A DNA stretch of 63,139 nt, the filler included, from Rhabdomonas costata (Eukaryota), in assembly GCA_019059605.1 (NCBI GenBank). It is 49 parts of 49 records of this genome, joined end to end, with 100 filler letters (N's around TTAATTAATTAA, not from the genome) between each part and the next. Parts side by side here need not be neighbours in the genome. Positions count along the whole stretch, not along the records: positions 10,327 to 11,517 come from JAHMHO010024254.1; 48 more parts are not named here. One strand, given 5' to 3'. Shown here one piece after another: positions 9,301 through 60,355 of the stretch. The stretch's first letter is position 1. Each line of letters opens with the position of its first letter. The notes beneath the pieces were generated by a model. It searched no databases and was not told the DNA's origin. It saw only the letters and a list, made by a program, of their open reading frames with translations. The position numbers and the translations under genes were made by a program.

Positions 9301-10339
9301 GGTCAATGGCACAGTGGCGAACTTTGTTTATTTGCTAAACCAGAGTTTCCCAACTGGTAGTGTGCTGCGCTGGACCGCCTCCGAACAGTTGGGTGTGCAG
9401 TCCAGACGGTGTGCTCCATGCGATGACAGCGGCAGCCGAACACAGAAGGGATTAGTGCGACCCTCTCTGTGCGGGTGGGGCAACTTAAAAAACTGAATCT
9501 CACTGGATGCACAGGCGTAAGTTTCACTTGTGGGGATGAACGTGTGGAAATTGCACCCGTGCACGCCGATGCATTGGATGTAACTTGCATTGAGAAATCC
9601 ACTTCAGCATTGGTATTCTTTAAGGCACGGTGACAACTTGCATCCACGAGCAGTTTAGTAGCAACGAAAAACAATGCCATTCTACGCAAGAAGCGCAAGT
9701 AGCCTTAAATTCCCAGGTGGAATACTCTTGAGTCATAATTGATACAAGTCTCAAAAACAAGAGAGAACGGCAAGACCCGCTGGGAAGCTTTCCAGGAACA
9801 ACAAGAACGAGCCTTCGGCTGAGCACCATCACCGGTTTAGCAAACTGGGCAACCGCATGTGCCCTGACGTGACGTTCTTTTGTCAGAGTGGGGTCAAACC
9901 CAAGCTTCCCCTCCACCTGATAGTGAAAAAAGGGCAGAGAGGACGCTACACAACAACAAAGCTAAAGCTCCATGGGAAAGGCTGACTTATCTTTAGCTGT
10001 AATAGCTGCGAACGCAGCCGCACCACGTTCCACCTGGATATATACACCATGCACTGTGCAAACACCCAAAACCAACTAAATCATTGCACGCGCCCGCGCC
10101 GTAGGTCAACCTTTGCGAACCCCCCCCCCGAAAAACAAAATCCACCAATAGCGTAATCCCGTTGTGGGTCTCCGAATGAGTACAAGTCACCAGGATAGAG
10201 CCGGAAACCACTTTGCCGGAGATGAANNNNNNNNNNNNNNNNNNNNNNNNNNNNNNNNNNNNNNNNNNNNTTAATTAATTAANNNNNNNNNNNNNNNNNN
10301 NNNNNNNNNNNNNNNNNNNNNNNNNNGTGTGGTTGTGGA

Positions 10340-11500
10340 GCGGGCCGAGCGGTTCAGATTCTCTTGCACGTAAGTGGTGACGTAGCAGGCCAGCCCGACC
10401 TGAAACGAAGTAATGCGGGCCAACCTAACCGTGGCTGCATGCTGTTCTTGACACCATACAGGGTCCATGACAAAGTTGGGACCTGCACTCCGTGGAGAAG
10501 CGAGGGCATCTTTTTGTCAGCGTGGATGTGGTCAATGGCGTGGCTGATGAGGTGCTCCGAGCCGCTGGCAGGGCGGGAAGACCCCGCGGCGTTCATGGCC
10601 AGCCCACTTATCAGCAGGCCGTGAGCGAGGGTTTTCAGGAATGCTGGATCCAGGCACCGTGGCTGAGTCGCTGGAACAGGAAAGAAAATACAGGCTTGCC
10701 ACGCGGCGTACAGCATGGTCACCGCGAGGTCATCGACCTGAGAAAGTGAGAAAGTCCCCAAAGGATTCCCCAAAGGTGCTGGTGGCAATAAAAGTGGGGC
10801 TGAGTCTCATGTAACCGAGGAATTTAGAAGAGAGTTGGAGCTCAAGGCGGAGTCGAAACGGCGTGCCACCCAAGAAAATGGGCAATTCCACCACGGACCC
10901 CTCCGGATATTGCAGAAAACCACCGTTCAACTTATAACCTCACAAAAGTCAAAAAGCTTCTCCCCAATGAAAGGTGTTGAAGCTGTCACAAACCCGACAG
11001 CATGGACTGTAACATTTCAAAACCCAGAGTTTTAACCTGCTGCTTCTCCCCGATATGGAAGGCGATCTTCCAGTCCACCAAGGAGCTGATCTTACCTGCC
11101 ATTTCGCCCACCCCGGCATAGGTCGAGCTGACAGGAGCCTTGCGGATCACTGCGGGATCCACCACAATCGCAGCCGGGGGTGTAGCGCGGAGGGACTTCT
11201 TCATTCCCTTAACATCGAGAGACACCCCACCCGACGCAAAGGCGTCCTGGGAGATGATCGTCGGGATGAGCATAACCGGGATGCGAAGGACATGACCAAT
11301 CCATTTGGCGCCATCGATGGCAACCCCTCCGCCAATTCCGATCACGAGGGAGGCAGTGGACGGGACGGAGGTGAGGAGGGAGGAAAGGCCCTCCACTGAG
11401 GCCTCGGTCAGGGTAGTCTCAAAAACCATCGCGCACTCGGGGTAGAACTCCAGCAAAGAGTTCTGGATGGTCGTGCTGAAGAGGTCATGCAGATATTCAC
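10340..11500 (-). CDS. sn-glycerol-1-phosphate dehydrogenase-like (EgsA/AraM family), 3 exons, partial (~11500-11037, 10737-10483, 10399-~10340)
   Basis: Motifs IGIGGGVAIDGAK, PTIISQDAFAS, PAAIVVD..VI.KAP...AGVGE...K...DW, GSSRPASGSEHLISH and HGVQ|VG. Two phase-0 GT-AG introns (11036-10738, 10482-10400) splice in frame. Confidence 0.88.
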
Positions 11501-11734
11501 CCCAGAAAAACACACAANNNNNNNNNNNNNNNNNNNNNNNNNNNNNNNNNNNNNNNNNNNNTTAATTAATTAANNNNNNNNNNNNNNNNNNNNNNNNNNN
11601 NNNNNNNNNNNNNNNNNGGTTTTTTGGGCACGTGTCTCGACAAAGGTTATGGCTGTACCTTGACAAGTAGTTTTCCTTTCGCGGGACCCGGCCGTCGCCC
11701 ACCCGGGGGCCATTATATATGTCCTATTTTTCAG

Positions 11735-44805: not shown

Positions 44806-44841
<36 letters not shown>

Positions 44842-44855
44842 GGCGGGGGGCTCAC

Positions 44856-45080
44856 CTCGCTTTCGGCACGACGGGGGCAGCACGGAGTCCCGGTAGACCC
44901 TGGGCTGCCTGTTGAACCGGAAGAAGCTGGGCATGCTGACTACCCACACCCCACCCTCGGAGTGCAGCCGCCGCGCCGCCTCCACGGCGAGGTGCAGCTC
45001 ACTGCCGCAGCTCAGCAGGATGAGCTGCAGCGGGCCTACCTCGGGGATGGCGACGTACCCCCCTCGGTACACCCCTACCC
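44856..45080 (-). CDS. tkt: Transketolase, C-terminal domain exon
   Basis: GVYRGGY...ILLSCGSELHLAVEAA....VVSMPS...F..Q...YRDSVLP; GTGAG donor. Confidence 0.92.
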
Positions 45081-45188: not shown

Positions 45189-45653
45189 GCTCTAAATTTC
45201 TTTGAAGCAGTTCTTTGTTTTGGCCTAATTGTGGGCTCATGACTGTGCTGGGCTAAGGGCGGAGCACATGCTGGGCCATGGTCGCGCTACTGTTGCTGAC
45301 TGGAGTGGTCGGTTTCGGCAATGTGTTATGAACTATGAGGCTTCCTGGGGTGCTGGAGTGATAGGTGGCCCTGATATGGAGGAGTTCCAGTGGAGAGCAA
45401 ACTTGGATGGCAAAGACCCCTTTCTTTCGTTGATGGAGCACATTCGCAATGGACATTTCCAGTGAATATTGTAATATTTGAATTCGCAGGGGGTTAGGAA
45501 GCCATGCACGTGTCCCCTAAGACAAGATATTTCATTTCACAGGGGGTTAGGAAGCCATGCACGTGTCCCCTAGGACAAGATATTTGATTTCACAGGGGGT
45601 TAGGAAGCGATGCACGTGTCCCCTAGTAAAAGGTTCACTGCTGAACGTATGCC
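45189..45653 (+). mobile_element. Internally deleted Merlin/IS1595(IS1016)-like DNA transposon remnant
   Basis: TVADW..RFRQ.......IGGP (pre-DDE motif) abuts EEFQWR....DPF..L..HI (C-terminal motif); subterminal tandem repeats follow, then a possible TIR ending in GCC at 45653. Confidence 0.6.
45487..45625. repeat. 53-bp tandem repeat, ~2.6 copies
   Basis: cagggggttaggaagcSatgcacgtgtccccta... units start at 45487, 45540 and 45593. Confidence 0.97.
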
Positions 45654-48379
45654 ATATATTCTAATGAATTAAAATATATAAAAATTTTAATATATATTTC
45701 TTCACTATAACTGTTAATATGTTAATATAAATAAAAATTGATAAATATTTTTATTGTAATGTCCATATATTTGAACACGGTCCTTTGTCTACTTGATACT
45801 ACGTCCTTTAGCTCACTCTCAACTCTTCCACTCAACTCTTCTGCACAACTCTTCCGCTCGACGCTACAAATGCAACGCACAATCACTCCTCGTGATTATG
45901 CTGCTTGTGTCACACAGCTGCACACACAAGTGTGGCTATTCCTTCTAGTCTATTCCTTTTAGTGTCTGGAACTCTGGAGTAATTGACACATTGCTGCGTA
46001 CAGCATTTGCGCATCCTACTGGGACGCAACACATTAACGTGACCTGGACTTCGGATGATGAGTCTGTAGTTTCCAATCCGTTTTATCATCTGGAAGGCTC
46101 CTTTGAAAAAATCGACGGTGTGTTGACTATCCAGCGCTTTGAGGTGCTGTGGTAAAAACAGCACGCAGGCAACGCAGGCAACGCAGGCGAAGCGGGGCGA
46201 GCAGACAGACCTTGCACTGATTATATACAGCTCTCATGTGCAACAGCAACCATTTTATATATACTAATGAATTAAAATATATAAAATATTTAATATATAA
46301 TATTCACCTCTTATTAATACATATGTAACCATATCTATATATACAGTAACCATACATATACATAGAATGCATATAATAANNNNNNNNNNNNNNNNNNNNN
46401 NNNNNNNNNNNNNNNNNNNNNNNTTAATTAATTAANNNNNNNNNNNNNNNNNNNNNNNNNNNNNNNNNNNNNNNNNNNNCCCCCCTCCCCCCATAGACCG
46501 GGGACTAATGGTGGGAGATTAATGGTTCAAGTGCCAGTCCTGGGCATCCTGACCTGCGGATACCGAGTAAATCAGGGACTGAATGAGTGGCCGACAGAAT
46601 GAGCAGCAAAAGATAAAAAAAACTTGAGACCCACCCACAGGCATGCCAGCATTTGCCTCTCAGGGCTGTGAATCCGGCCTCCGGCCAAGTTGCTCTGACC
46701 CATGGAGATTTTGTATAGGCCATCGAAGAGACCTTTATCGGCAGGGGAAATGACGGGAGCTTCCAGAGTCGTGGGCCGCGGTACACGCGGTACACGCGGT
46801 ACACATCTGATACAGCAGAAAAAAGAAGATGGACATTTTGCTTTCGTAAAGAGAGTACTTCCACTCCCACCAGGAAGCAAAGTGAGCTTTTCTTCTGCCT
46901 ACTTCCGAGCGCTGCCAAAATGTTGTGTCCTTTGTCCTCAAAAGAGTCCGGGACCCCACTCACACTCAAAAGCTGGAGAGAACGTGACGACGACAACGTC
47001 CGGCAACCTCAACAACGGAAGCATTGGGGGGAACTAATCTCTGCGATTCCTGCACACGGCGCAGCAGAGAGGTCGGCGGGAGTAAAAGTACAAGAATACA
47101 GCCACAAATAAGTTCACACTTTGCTGGCGGGGGTGGGGAGCCAATCAAGCCGCGAATCACCCAGTCCCCCGCGAGTATCACTCCACACAGCAGAATGACC
47201 GACGAGAGGCCGCCAACCCGGGAGCTCTGGGCCATTTGAGTGTGGGGTACAAGACAGGACAGCAACTGAAAGGATAGAACACGCGAATGAATGAAAAAGA
47301 ACACGTCGTATTTGAAAGCGCAAAAAGGATTCATCCTCAAAACAGCAGATCAATCTTGACAGAACCCTGAACTGCTGTTACAGAGACGAGGCTTAAAATC
47401 CGGCAACACCTGTGAGAAGAATTTCCCGTAAAGCAAAACAAATTCTCTAAAGCATTTATGCGACCTCATAGCAGACGAAATCCAAAGCAACAACACCAAG
47501 ATGGGAGATCACCTCCTGCTTCATACTATACGATACGTTCGGGAAGCACCCACGGCTCAGTCCATTCTGTCCCCAAAGGCGATGAAGTGGAAAGGCGACA
47601 TCTGCAACCCATGAATCCAAACAGTTTTACAGAAATAGAGTACAAGCACCATCAAAACGTCAACAACACCNNNNNNNNNNNNNNNNNNNNNNNNNNNNNN
47701 NNNNNNNNNNNNNNTTAATTAATTAANNNNNNNNNNNNNNNNNNNNNNNNNNNNNNNNNNNNNNNNNNNNCTTGATTTGAACATTTGTTATCAGGTAGCA
47801 TTGATAACCTGTTGTTCCCAACCATCCAAGCTTGCACCACCATCCAATTGTGAGAGGCTAAGCCTTCCCTTGTCTCCACGCTCCTCCTGGCGCGTGGGCC
47901 AGGCATTGAGATGGGAATCTTGAAGGCCAGCGTAGCCCGCGACTTTTACTGACATTCTTCGACGAGGAAATGAGGGAGCGGGGGTGGGCAGGCAAATTCC
48001 ACAGGGACAATTTCAGCCACCAGTCATCGATAGAAATGCGGAGGCTAAGCGAAGTTGCGGTGCTGAGTGTTACAGGAAGTCTTTTATTGTGTGAGTGATT
48101 TATTATGTTCGAGAAAAAATATCACAAAGCTTAGATTCAAAAACGTTCCTGGAAACTCCTTTCAGCTGCCGCCTTTTTTCCTTGAGTTCGACGTTTTGCT
48201 CTGTTTCAAAACCAAAACAGCACGTTAATAACCCACCAACATCGGCTCAGCTCCCGTTCGCCACTTGGAAAACAAAAAGAGGTCCCTGCCGGATTCCGTC
48301 AATAAGAGCAATGCTGGCGTAACAATGAAGTCAGAGAGGAAACGAGCCACGAAAAAGAGAAAGTGAAGCAGGGGTATGC

Positions 48380-48488
48380 CATAGGTGTCAAAGATGATTC
48401 CGAGGCCCTTGAAGTCGGTGTTGATACCCCACAGGTTGGGCTTGCTGGCGTGGGTGGGGTCGCTGGGAAGGTAGTGAAACGGCCTCTC
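48380..48488 (-). CDS. L-type lectin (VIP36/ERGIC-53-like) exon
   Basis: NLWG...DFKGLGIIFDTY matches the FxGLGIFxDTY motif. Confidence 0.75.
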
Positions 48489-49060
48489 CTGTGAGAAAGA
48501 AAGACAGTGTGCTCGCAGCCATCTTTCCTGAAAAGCGGATGCACCAACTTTCACCTGAGCGGTGCGGCCCATTTTTTAGGGGTGGGTGGGTTTGATATTC
48601 GGCTTAACAACGATGATTTAACGTGCTTAAACAATCTAATGCTGTAAAACGAATAACGTTAACGTTGACAACTTATCGTTACCAAACAACTGAACGTTGT
48701 TAAACGGTGAGTTGCGAGAATAGGAATTTTGTATTGGGGTAACTTTCCTCGGTATTTTCTGATGTGATAGAGAACTGGGCGGGCGGCTGAGGCGGGGACG
48801 TTGTCTAGGTTACTGGGGGCACTTTCGCGATCATGCGCACCAAAACACATCTGTGGAGCGCAGCCACACGAAAACCGAAAAACCCATGACGATGCAGCGG
48901 AGAGGGGAGACAAGTCCAACAGAGCACTAGTACACCCCAACAGCCTATAGCCGGGGTAGCNNNNNNNNNNNNNNNNNNNNNNNNNNNNNNNNNNNNNNNN
49001 NNNNTTAATTAATTAANNNNNNNNNNNNNNNNNNNNNNNNNNNNNNNNNNNNNNNNNNNN

Positions 49061-50251
49061 TGCGTTCTTCTTGTATTCTTGGGTTCTGGTATTGGTGTAA
49101 GGTTAAGGTGTAGGGTTCTGAGTCGGAGTGGAGTTGAGTTCTGAGTTGGGTTCTGAGTTGGAGTTGGAGTTGAAGTTTGGGTTCTGAGGTGGAGTCGTAG
49201 GGTAGTGAATCGGAGTCGGAGTCGTAGTGTAGTAGAGTGTAGTGTGTCGGAGTCTGAGGGTCAGGAGTTGCGTTGGAGTCGGAGGGTTGAGGTGTGAGGT
49301 GTGCGCGGGATTTGCGTTGCGTAGGGTGAGGATGGAGGATGCGTTACGGTTTCGTGTTTGCGTGTGGAGGATGGAAGGTCGGAGGGTCGATGCGTGAGTT
49401 TGGAGGGTCAGCGTTTCTGTGTCTGTGCTAAGGTAGAGTGTGAGGAGAGGAGTGAGGGTCGTGGAGTTGCTGCGTGGATTTCGTGGAGGGTGGATTTCGT
49501 GGAGGGTGTGGATTCTGAGGTCGTGGTGGGTTGGATGGTGAGGGTGTGAGTCGAAGCGTTGGGTGTGGAAGGTGGATGGTGGAGAGTGAGAGGGTGAAGG
49601 GTGACGGTGTGGAGGGTGAGAGTGCGTAGGGTATCAGCATGACTGTAGTAGGGTGCATAGGGGAATAGAGTGTAGGCATCAAGCTGACAACCCCCCCTAC
49701 CAGGTGTGAAGAAGAGAAGAAGAGAGAAGTGAGACCTTCACCTTTCACCTTTCACCTCTTGGTATTCCTCTGTGGCTACGCCCGGACGACGGAATGTACC
49801 ACCTTAGGGTGGGGAGTGACACGTGTAGAAGATGATGGTGGTGAACGGAAGCACCTTAGGGTGGTGGAGTGAACAGGAGTGAGAGGAGTGATGTGAGGGA
49901 CCGAACATCACGACGTGGAGAGGAGGAACGGACCGCGCAGCGGGGAGCGACGACTGGATGTTAAAGTGGTAATGTTGATGGGTCGTCACACTCGCTCCTC
50001 TCACTGCGTTCGATGTCGCTCCTGTTCTTCCAAGTCGTCACGCTTCGCTTCGTTCCTCCGACGTCACATTCACACTCGTCACACTCCCTCAGGTCGTGTT
50101 CCTCCTATTCATGTTCCTCTACGTGTCGACTCTCACTGCGTTCGTGTCTCCTTTCTATGCGTTCTTTCGATCACCCTCCACACCGTCACCCTTCACCCTC
50201 TCACTCAACTCACCCACCATCCACCTTCCACATCCAACGCTTCGACACAAA
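49061..50251. repeat. Low-complexity G/T-rich degenerate repeat contig with internal inversion
   Basis: gagttg/gagtcg-type units; ~49549-49620 is an imperfect reverse complement of ~50170-50248. Confidence 0.8.
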
Positions 50252-59266: not shown

Positions 59267-59608
59267 CCCNNNNNNNNNNNNNNNNNNNNNNNNNNNNNNN
59301 NNNNNNNNNNNNNTTAATTAATTAANNNNNNNNNNNNNNNNNNNNNNNNNNNNNNNNNNNNNNNNNNNNGGGGTGGGTTGTGCCCCCCAAACCCTCAAAT
59401 GTGTGTGTCAAAATTATTCGCTCTGCTGAAGAGATCTACTTGAGGAACCGTTTGGTTACCGGAACGAGCCAAAATCTAGAGCACAACAGCGTAAATTCTT
59501 GCTGACACACTCCACCACGGGGCAAGGCTGGTAAAAGCCCAAAGTCCATCTCTCATGCTCATGCTTGTTTCACAGCAACGCCGCACAGGGGGGCAGGTGG
59601 ATCAATAC

Positions 59609-60355
59609 CAGGCTTGTGAAGATAAACTCGGAGCGCGAGGAGTTGAATTTCGTCAATAGAAAGAGTGCCTGAGACGGACCCCGCAGCCGGGAGTTCACAG
59701 TGCGCATGGCAATGCTGATGATACAGTTGTACCCTGGTAGGGGAGGGCGGGCGGCGGTGAAGACACTATCGACACAGGGGCTCTGAGATACATGGGAAGG
59801 TAAAGACACCCAATCATCCAGCAAAGCGGATGTGTTTTCCATAAAATCGACATGGGGGGTGAGCAGGGCATGGGGGCCGCCAACGCCACTGCTCGCCTGA
59901 AACCTTTTAATCAACAGCGTTCTGTCGCTCGCCGTGTACACAGCGGTCGTCAGAACTGCTTCAAGCACTCCGTCTACGCAGCGGTCCGGGCGGTGTCGGA
60001 CCCATCGGGCACCCGCCACACGCATATACTCAATAGGTACGGCAACCACGGCAACGTCGGTGAACGAGACTCTTCTTCCACGCACCTGAGCGAACTGCAA
60101 GTGCAATAATTAATGAAAGGAGAAGACTAAAAGACTACCGATGCATCTGTTGATGCGGGGGTTCTTCTGGGAGCTCCAGATCATCCGCAAGTTGGTGACA
60201 ACAAGGCTGCCCTTCTCGCCGTTGTTGCCCTTGGTTTCCTCGATGCTGTCCACCCTGTCAATCTCGAATTCCCCGCGTCGCAGCTCAAATTTCTCTACAG
60301 GCACATCAAAGACAATCTCACGGTCCACAGGGTTCTCGCCCTCGACCTGAGCCAT
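59609..60355 (-). CDS. BBS5: Bardet-Biedl syndrome 5 protein (BBSome), exons 60355-60139 and 59733-59609
   Basis: DREIVFD....LRRGE..ID....[20 protein letters not shown], then GYNCI.....[22 protein letters not shown]. Confidence 0.95.

Follow-up and report, generated by a model that had tools for sequence, protein, structure and literature searches.

A gene of the glycerol-1-phosphate dehydrogenase (G1PDH) family, interrupted by two introns, lies on a 1191-base contig of the genome assembly of the eukaryote Rhabdomonas costata (GCA_019059605.1), within a stretch of 63,139 nucleotides that is referred to here as the window. The reading that we favour, with a probability of roughly 0.6, is that a bacterial-type gene of this family was acquired laterally by a flagellated eukaryote, where it gained introns and has stayed under purifying selection. 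In this scenario a bacterial gene of a type related to AraM and to the protein of Protein Data Bank (PDB) entry 3ce9 would have been the ancestor; after the transfer, two spliceosomal introns would have been gained and the codon usage would have become rich in GC at third positions (GC3) like that of the host, and the gene would then have been maintained in the nuclear genome.

The subject has some weight, since G1PDH determines the stereochemistry that divides archaeal from bacterial and eukaryotic membrane lipids. An intron-bearing eukaryotic copy would open the question of glycerol-1-phosphate (G1P) to testing outside the prokaryotes and give a clean example of introns being gained following lateral transfer. 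The claim is limited by the small size of the contig, 1.2 kb, and by the single close relative.

Exon structure and the eukaryotic host

The window is made of 49 unrelated contigs of 1180–1199 bases each (most of them 1189–1191), joined by 48 identical linkers of the form N44-TTAATTAATTAA-N44, and these linkers invalidate any neighbour-based reading across 10227–10326, 11518–11617 or any other junction. The gene is read on the minus strand of its contig in three exons (Table 1). It is incomplete at both contig ends, about 269 of some 350–376 codons being present, and no further piece of it was found on the other 48 contigs of the window. When both introns are removed, the product is 269 residues long with a frame that is open throughout, as seen in the six-frame open reading frames (ORFs) and in an explicit reconstruction, and it contains the motifs GGGVAIDGAK, PTIISQDAFAS and SSRPASGSEHLISH. 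Without splicing, translation through intron 1 runs into an in-frame stop after 16 codons. Neither of the intron lengths, 299 and 83 nt, is divisible by three, so that in-frame insertions are excluded.

The same structure emerged from a comparison with a profile built solely from 107 bacterial members of the nearest clade. The spliced product aligned to this profile in a single stretch (276 bits, profile positions 80–327) that was gap-free at both junctions, whereas the unspliced DNA matched it in two pieces, of 157.6 and 79.9 bits, that lie in different frames. The closest relative found in the databases, a 376-residue protein that we call P0001, is also colinear with the spliced product across both junctions. 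The GT...AG borders, the restored frame and the colinearity with intronless homologues mark the two as probable spliceosomal introns of the U2 type. Because the bacterial relatives are intronless, both introns would have been gained after the transfer. A short direct repeat flanks each of them on the minus strand, CAGGT at intron 1 and CAGGTC at intron 2, an arrangement compatible with duplication during insertion at a proto-splice site. Within the window, neither intron has further copies that might mark it as belonging to a repeated element.

The nature of the host can be judged from other contigs of the window, which carry a Prp19 domain (2e-33), a piece of BBS5 (1e-9) and a C-terminal piece of transketolase (3e-15). 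The Prp19 and BBS5 pieces indicate that the assembly derives from a eukaryote with a spliceosome and with cilia or flagella. The GC3 of the candidate exons is 0.72–0.79, compared with 0.70 in the Prp19 exon, 0.72 in the BBS5 exon and 0.91 in the transketolase exon; overall GC is 58–62% in the exons and 47.5–51.8% in the introns, the latter being near the window background of 0.52. Since the window consists of 49 separate contigs, integration into the host genome is not readable from neighbours, and we infer it from the introns and the host-like GC3.

The pattern of substitutions suggests that the gene has been kept in use. Of 55 columns conserved at 90% or more in the 107 bacterial proteins, 48 are kept in the window product; the seven changes are all conservative and six are common to P0001. 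Agreement between the window product and P0001 amounts to 54/55, 31/36, 59/78 and 53/81 positions from the most to the least conserved class of columns. This gradient is expected under purifying selection on the ancestral function, and it argues against a decaying relic.

An earlier note on this DNA, made from the sequence alone, had proposed three exons joined in frame through two GT-AG introns of 299 and 83 bp, a second intron that splits the HGxQ/VG motif, and intact NAD(P)-binding, PT..S.D..AS and SSRPASGSEH-type motifs. The reconstruction and the gap-free alignment to the bacteria-only profile bear out the exon structure, the split motif is seen as HGVQ/VGLA, and the other motifs are present in the spliced frame. 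The view that the contig is eukaryotic rather than bacterial is upheld by the two introns, the same alignment and the host-like GC3. The note had also called the gene host-integrated, which is not borne out in that form: a stand-alone contig provides no neighbour evidence for it, and the case for it comes from the introns and GC3.

Table 1. Features of the G1PDH-family contig and exon-sized gene pieces on other contigs, in window coordinates
Feature	Position	Strand	Remarks
Stand-alone contig, 1191 bases	10327..11517		artificial N/TTAATTAATTAA linkers at 10227-10326 and 11518-11617
Exon 1	11517..11037	minus	160 full codons from 11516; truncated by contig end; NAD(P)-binding half with GIGGGVAIDGAK, PTIISQDAFAS and AGVGEMAGK
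Intron 1	11036..10738	minus	299 nt, GT...AG, phase 0, pyrimidine-rich 3' end, GC 47.5%
Exon 2	10737..10483	minus	85 codons; carries SSRPASGSEHLISH; last residues HGVQ
Intron 2	10482..10400	minus	83 nt, GT...AG, phase 0, GC 51.8%; interrupts HGVQ/VGLA
Exon 3	10399..10327	minus	24 codons; starts VGLACYVTTYVQ; truncated by contig end
Direct repeat sites, intron 1	11032-11041 / 10733-10742	minus
Direct repeat sites, intron 2	10478-10488 / 10394-10405	minus
Prp19 exon-sized piece	25119-25307	plus
Transketolase C-terminal exon-sized piece	44857-45063	minus
BBS5 exon-sized piece	59606-59734	minus

Some other features of the window may be mentioned here. The transketolase exon ends in a GTGAGC donor, with a (GT)16 microsatellite close after it (44809–44840). 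Tandem repeats with units of 52 and 53 bases (2.0 and 2.9 copies, 94–98% matching) lie on separate contigs at 22033–22138 and 45474–45626. The contig at 49061–50251 has a strong GC skew (0.33 in the bin 48001–50000) and G-rich tandem units of 15–23 bases, and its longest ORF is of low complexity. A scan of the window with Rfam gave no matches, and neither of two short spliced-leader motifs was found in it.

Family membership and probable bacterial origin

Exon 1 matches the Pfam family PF13685 (Fe-ADH_2) at 4.2e-22 with 79 bits, the cut-off being 28. In Gaona-Lopez et al. 2016 (PMC5125639), PF13685 is equated with the CDD entry cd08549 ('G1PDH and related'), and G1PDH is counted among the patchily distributed families. 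The top NCBIfam model is NF002022 (NAD(P)-dependent glycerol-1-phosphate dehydrogenase) for exon 1 (85 bits) as well as exon 2 (50 bits), ahead of the GldA and aroB models, and these totals are partial because the window exons are fragments. On P0001, NF002022 reaches 155 bits; the GldA model NF006941 gives 56 (cut-off 336), aroB 26 (cut-off 305) and the glycolaldehyde-reductase model NF053832 35. Membership in the glycerol dehydrogenase GldA was rejected at 56 bits against 336.

Comparisons with solved structures gave a similar ranking. Among PDB sequences, P0001 is closest to 3ce9 (8e-43), followed by the G1PDHs 9h4x, 4rgq/4rfl and 5fb3 (5e-27 to 5e-24), while GldA entries match at 3e-11 or more weakly. 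For the fold comparison, an AlphaFold model of full-length P0001 (mean pLDDT confidence score 87.9) was used rather than the window fragment. Foldseek again placed 3ce9 at the top (TM-score, TM, of 0.82/0.88), then AraM and the G1PDH of M. jannaschii, then GldA; the TM of the G1PDHs to the model is 0.60–0.75. Alignments at the level of residues show that SRPxSGxEH and the HG that follows are common to the eukaryotic protein and to 9h4x, 4rgq and 5fb3, and that the nucleotide-binding GGG...D..K motif is common to the window protein and the solved G1PDHs. The complete SSRPASGSEH, including its Arg, is common to the window protein, AraM (9h4x) and the G1PDHs of M. jannaschii (4rgq/4rfl) and P. 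calidifontis (5fb3). These results support the placement of the predicted window protein in the G1PDH family in a broad sense, and not with GldA or 3-dehydroquinate synthase. Equivalence to archaeal EgsA is not supported, as the scores lie under the NF002022 cut-off of 413 bits and EgsA branches outside the bacterial clade.

P0001 is about 78% identical to the window product (76–77% over exon 1 and 86% over exon 2), and it was the sole close relative found among 5.8 billion proteins. In that collection, exon 1 found only P0001 close among longer proteins and no relative among exon-sized ones. Among the best 120 of 2384 proteins of similar length, the rest are at most 39% identical to P0001, and the named proteins that come after it in the set are bacterial or bear JGI's G1PDH label. 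Matches to P0001 at E ≤ 0.001 number 3211 in a library of 1.84 billion representatives; only 26 of them reach 1e-30 or better, and the top non-self match is 42–43% identical. The search of JGI metagenome contigs with P0001 gave no relative; a pair-alignment search of these contigs gave six distant loci of 33–40% identity. The protein atlas placed P0001 with bacterial Fe-ADH_2 clusters only, and the names of clusters carried little taxonomic information. The HGVQVG helix of P0001 is followed by an insertion, at residues ~283–299, where the pLDDT of the model falls below 50 (286–293), and the window contig stops at that point.

A collection with one genome per prokaryotic species yielded 600 pattern hits, of which 595 encode relatives. 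The best 80 loci are all bacterial and 31–37% identical, and they come from Spirochaetota, Fibrobacterota, Myxococcota, gut Alphaproteobacteria, non-photosynthetic Cyanobacteriota, Elusimicrobiota, Actinomycetota and Bacillota; none is archaeal. A FastTree phylogeny of 237 rows joined the window product and P0001 with support 100 and placed the pair within a clade of 109 rows (support 97) in which every named member is bacterial. A second tree was computed with IQ-TREE under LG+C20 from 66 rows, sampled as one row in three from the 109-row clade and one in four or five from the rest; four paralogues served as the outgroup. Here the pair (100/100) again lies inside a clade, now of 38 rows (99/96), and the other 36 rows are prokaryote-derived, being 27 loci with bacterial record titles and nine database proteins. 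The sister of this clade is a group of proteins of 410–480 residues (95/67), which includes a cluster named sn-glycerol-1-phosphate dehydrogenase (the NCBI name, from a Bacillota bacterium), and the top scorers on NF002022 branch further out. An archaeal origin was rejected, given that 0 of the 80 best genome loci are archaeal and that these highest scorers branch outside the clade. The simplest reading of the trees is a transfer from bacteria to a eukaryote.

The proposals of the earlier note are supported in part. It had assigned the gene to G1PDH rather than to glycerol dehydrogenase or dehydroquinate synthase, and the model scores on P0001 agree with the PDB and fold rankings in this; the use of SSRPASGSEH as a mark of G1PDH is borne out by the presence of the motif in three solved and named enzymes. 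Of the checks that it had proposed, the search against subfamily models found G1PDH best, but the curated G1PDH cut-off was missed by P0001 and by members of its clade. The trees agree with the lateral origin that it had suggested, the pair being nested in a prokaryote-derived clade; the nearest group is the bacterial clade described below, in which the gene is usually coupled to an HAD phosphatase gene, and not EgsA. The sn-G1P chemistry in a protist that the note had put forward is still a prediction.

Predicted function and competing explanations

Judged by its family and its motifs, the enzyme would most likely use NAD(P)H and a bound metal to reduce dihydroxyacetone phosphate (DHAP) to sn-G1P, the reaction of AraM and EgsA. 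The G1P might then be dephosphorylated to glycerol by an HAD phosphatase, in a redox or osmolyte role, or serve as a building block. Membrane lipids of the archaeal type would be the less likely use. The more specific proposal, that the protist lineage of the two sequences makes sn-G1P by a domesticated bacterial enzyme for G1P-based lipids or glycoconjugates, is speculative and we consider it unlikely.

The bacterial relatives offer some indication of the pathway. Among the 80 best loci, the ORF filter kept the core gene in 75 (L006, L032, L053, L072 and L073 were dropped). The gene directly upstream on the same strand falls in one of two clusters of HAD phosphatases in 59 of these 75 loci and often overlaps the core gene; the clusters comprise 36 loci (median gap –3 nt) and 23 loci (median gap 6 nt). 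Upstream examples match PF12710/PF06888 (L008, L017, L075) or PF13344 together with PF13242 (L001, L003). The two HAD types are unrelated to each other, and the two-gene unit with the G1PDH-like gene is widespread across many bacterial phyla. We know of no described function for this pair; its order, HAD gene and then G1PDH gene, is that of araL and araM in B. subtilis. Other recurrent neighbours that were scanned include a CNNM/CBS protein (17 loci), a glycosyltransferase-like protein (six loci) and proteins without a Pfam hit; no prenyl-glyceryl-phosphate synthase was among the neighbours scanned, not every neighbour being annotated. The idea that the Arg of SSRPASG tracks the HAD neighbour was dropped, since three of the four loci without this Arg still have the HAD gene. 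The coupling of dehydrogenase and phosphatase suggests a route from DHAP through G1P to glycerol, for redox or osmolyte purposes, at least as much as it would lipid synthesis. Apart from the eukaryotic gene itself, the finding points to a widespread bacterial pair of HAD phosphatase and G1PDH-like gene.

The predicted active site has both of the metal-site His residues. In the GxGD motif lies an Asp that we take to be a further metal ligand, by analogy with the Asp/His/His set of M. jannaschii G1PDH. The three solved G1PDHs and 104 of the 107 bacterial proteins have Asp at this position, but the window protein and P0001 have Glu. In dehydroquinate synthase, Glu serves as the first metal ligand. 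This D>E change is accompanied in both eukaryotic proteins by N>Q and G>A in the SNDGF motif, and the three columns are 93–98% conserved in bacteria. Further substitutions common to the two proteins are Y>W, S>A and F>L. Judged from the alignments, the shared substitutions are a small, coordinated remodelling around the putative active site, and the D>E, N>Q and G>A changes could mark a changed metal or substrate.

These substitutions in the GxGD and SNDGF motifs are among several points that weigh against the favoured reading. The curated NF002022 cut-off of 413 bits is reached neither by P0001 nor by the bacterial clade members tested (199–249 bits), and ten proteins from outside the clade also fall below it at 198–404 bits. 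The stem of the eukaryotic pair is long, at 1.77 changes per column, and its exact position within the clade is weak (57/79); the contig has no genomic neighbours. To our knowledge, no activity has been measured for any member of this bacterial clade, and the depositors of 3ce9, the closest solved structure, labelled it 'glycerol dehydrogenase'. There is also the precedent of a haloarchaeal protein annotated as G1PDH which PMC9700705 identifies as a glycolaldehyde reductase with no notable activity on DHAP or G1P. The scores, the label, the precedent and the three substitutions would all suit a real eukaryotic gene whose enzyme acts on some other small carbonyl or polyol, such as glycerol, glycolaldehyde or another phosphorylated polyol. 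Such an enzyme is a possibility to be taken seriously, if an improbable one, since the Arg-containing SSRPASGSEH common to the three named G1PDHs speaks for G1P, as does the score of 155 bits for the G1PDH model compared with 35 for NF053832 and 56 for GldA, and the phosphatase coupling in bacteria matches a phosphorylated product.

The remaining explanations concern where the gene comes from and whether it works. It might belong to a different eukaryote in the sequenced material, for example prey, a symbiont or a co-cultured protist; a contig of only 1191 bases without neighbours, and a single close relative in the databases searched, would be compatible with this, but the exon GC3 and intron GC resemble those of the Prp19 and BBS5 exons and of the background, which is a weak argument against it, and we regard this origin as distinctly unlikely. 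That the sequence is a transferred relic, an unexpressed or non-functional pseudogene, is less probable again: both gene ends are missing and a nearly invariant Asp has been replaced, yet 269 codons remain free of stops and frameshifts once the introns are removed, the pattern of functional conservation in bacteria is kept with six of the seven changes at conserved columns common to P0001, and P0001 itself is a second, intact and full-length member. Bacterial contamination or an assembly artefact, with 'introns' that arose by chance or as insertions, could be argued from the fact that all relatives except P0001 come from prokaryote genome or metagenome collections, the named ones all being bacterial. 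It is scarcely credible in view of two insertions of lengths other than 3n, each starting with GT and ending with AG at the very points where the alignment to the profile continues gap-free, the pyrimidine-rich 3' end of intron 1, and a nearest bacterial protein that is only ~35–43% identical.

A eukaryotic gene of the G1PDH family would be new to the literature that we searched. Yokobori et al. state that no eukaryotic G1PDH had been reported as of 2016, and our full-text searches found no report of one, supplements aside (the phylogenies of PMC6431249 and PMC5059525 might list eukaryotic sequences). Coleman et al. 2019 (PMC6431249) report a deep clan of bacterial G1PDHs, with eukaryotes examined only for bacterial-type genes. 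Rieche et al. 2026 (PMC13400652) note that no bacterial route to G1P other than AraM is known, and show that either enantiomer of glycerol phosphate is accepted by the bacterial enzymes PlsY and PlsC, so that a G1P-producing cell could in principle incorporate this compound into ordinary lipids. If true, such use of G1P as a building block would amount to heterochiral glycerophosphate metabolism in a eukaryote, of which the literature searched holds no prior report.

Comparison with known systems

With GldA and 3-dehydroquinate synthase, the eukaryotic proteins have in common the two-domain fold and the His/His metal site, and they differ from them by the low model scores (56 and 26 bits) and the weaker PDB matches. 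The resemblance to archaeal EgsA (EC 1.1.1.261; 4rgq, 5fb3) extends to the fold, the catalytic motifs and NF002022 as the best model. However, the identity in the fold alignment is 23–25%, the score is 155 bits versus the 413 of the cut-off, and EgsA branches outside the bacterial clade. AraM of B. subtilis, which is Ni2+-dependent (9h4x), belongs to the same family and has the same motifs. It differs in the modest match (5e-27, TM ~0.6), in its greater length, and in having GD where the window protein has GE.

The closest likeness is to the bacterial clade of ~350-residue proteins that includes 3ce9 from Clostridium acetobutylicum, which is the best match by sequence and by fold, belongs to the same clade of the tree and falls in the same length class. 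The motifs GGG, SxD, GxG[DE], S(S/T)SRPASGSEH and HGxQVG are common to this clade and the eukaryotic proteins. Unlike its members, the eukaryotic proteins are encoded by genes with introns, are only 31–43% identical to the bacterial ones, and carry the insertions PVPATQPRCLD and, before HG, KKMPSLL, as well as E, Q and A in place of D, N and G. The Arg of SSRPASG, absent in 3ce9 and a few clostridial members, is kept in both eukaryotic sequences.
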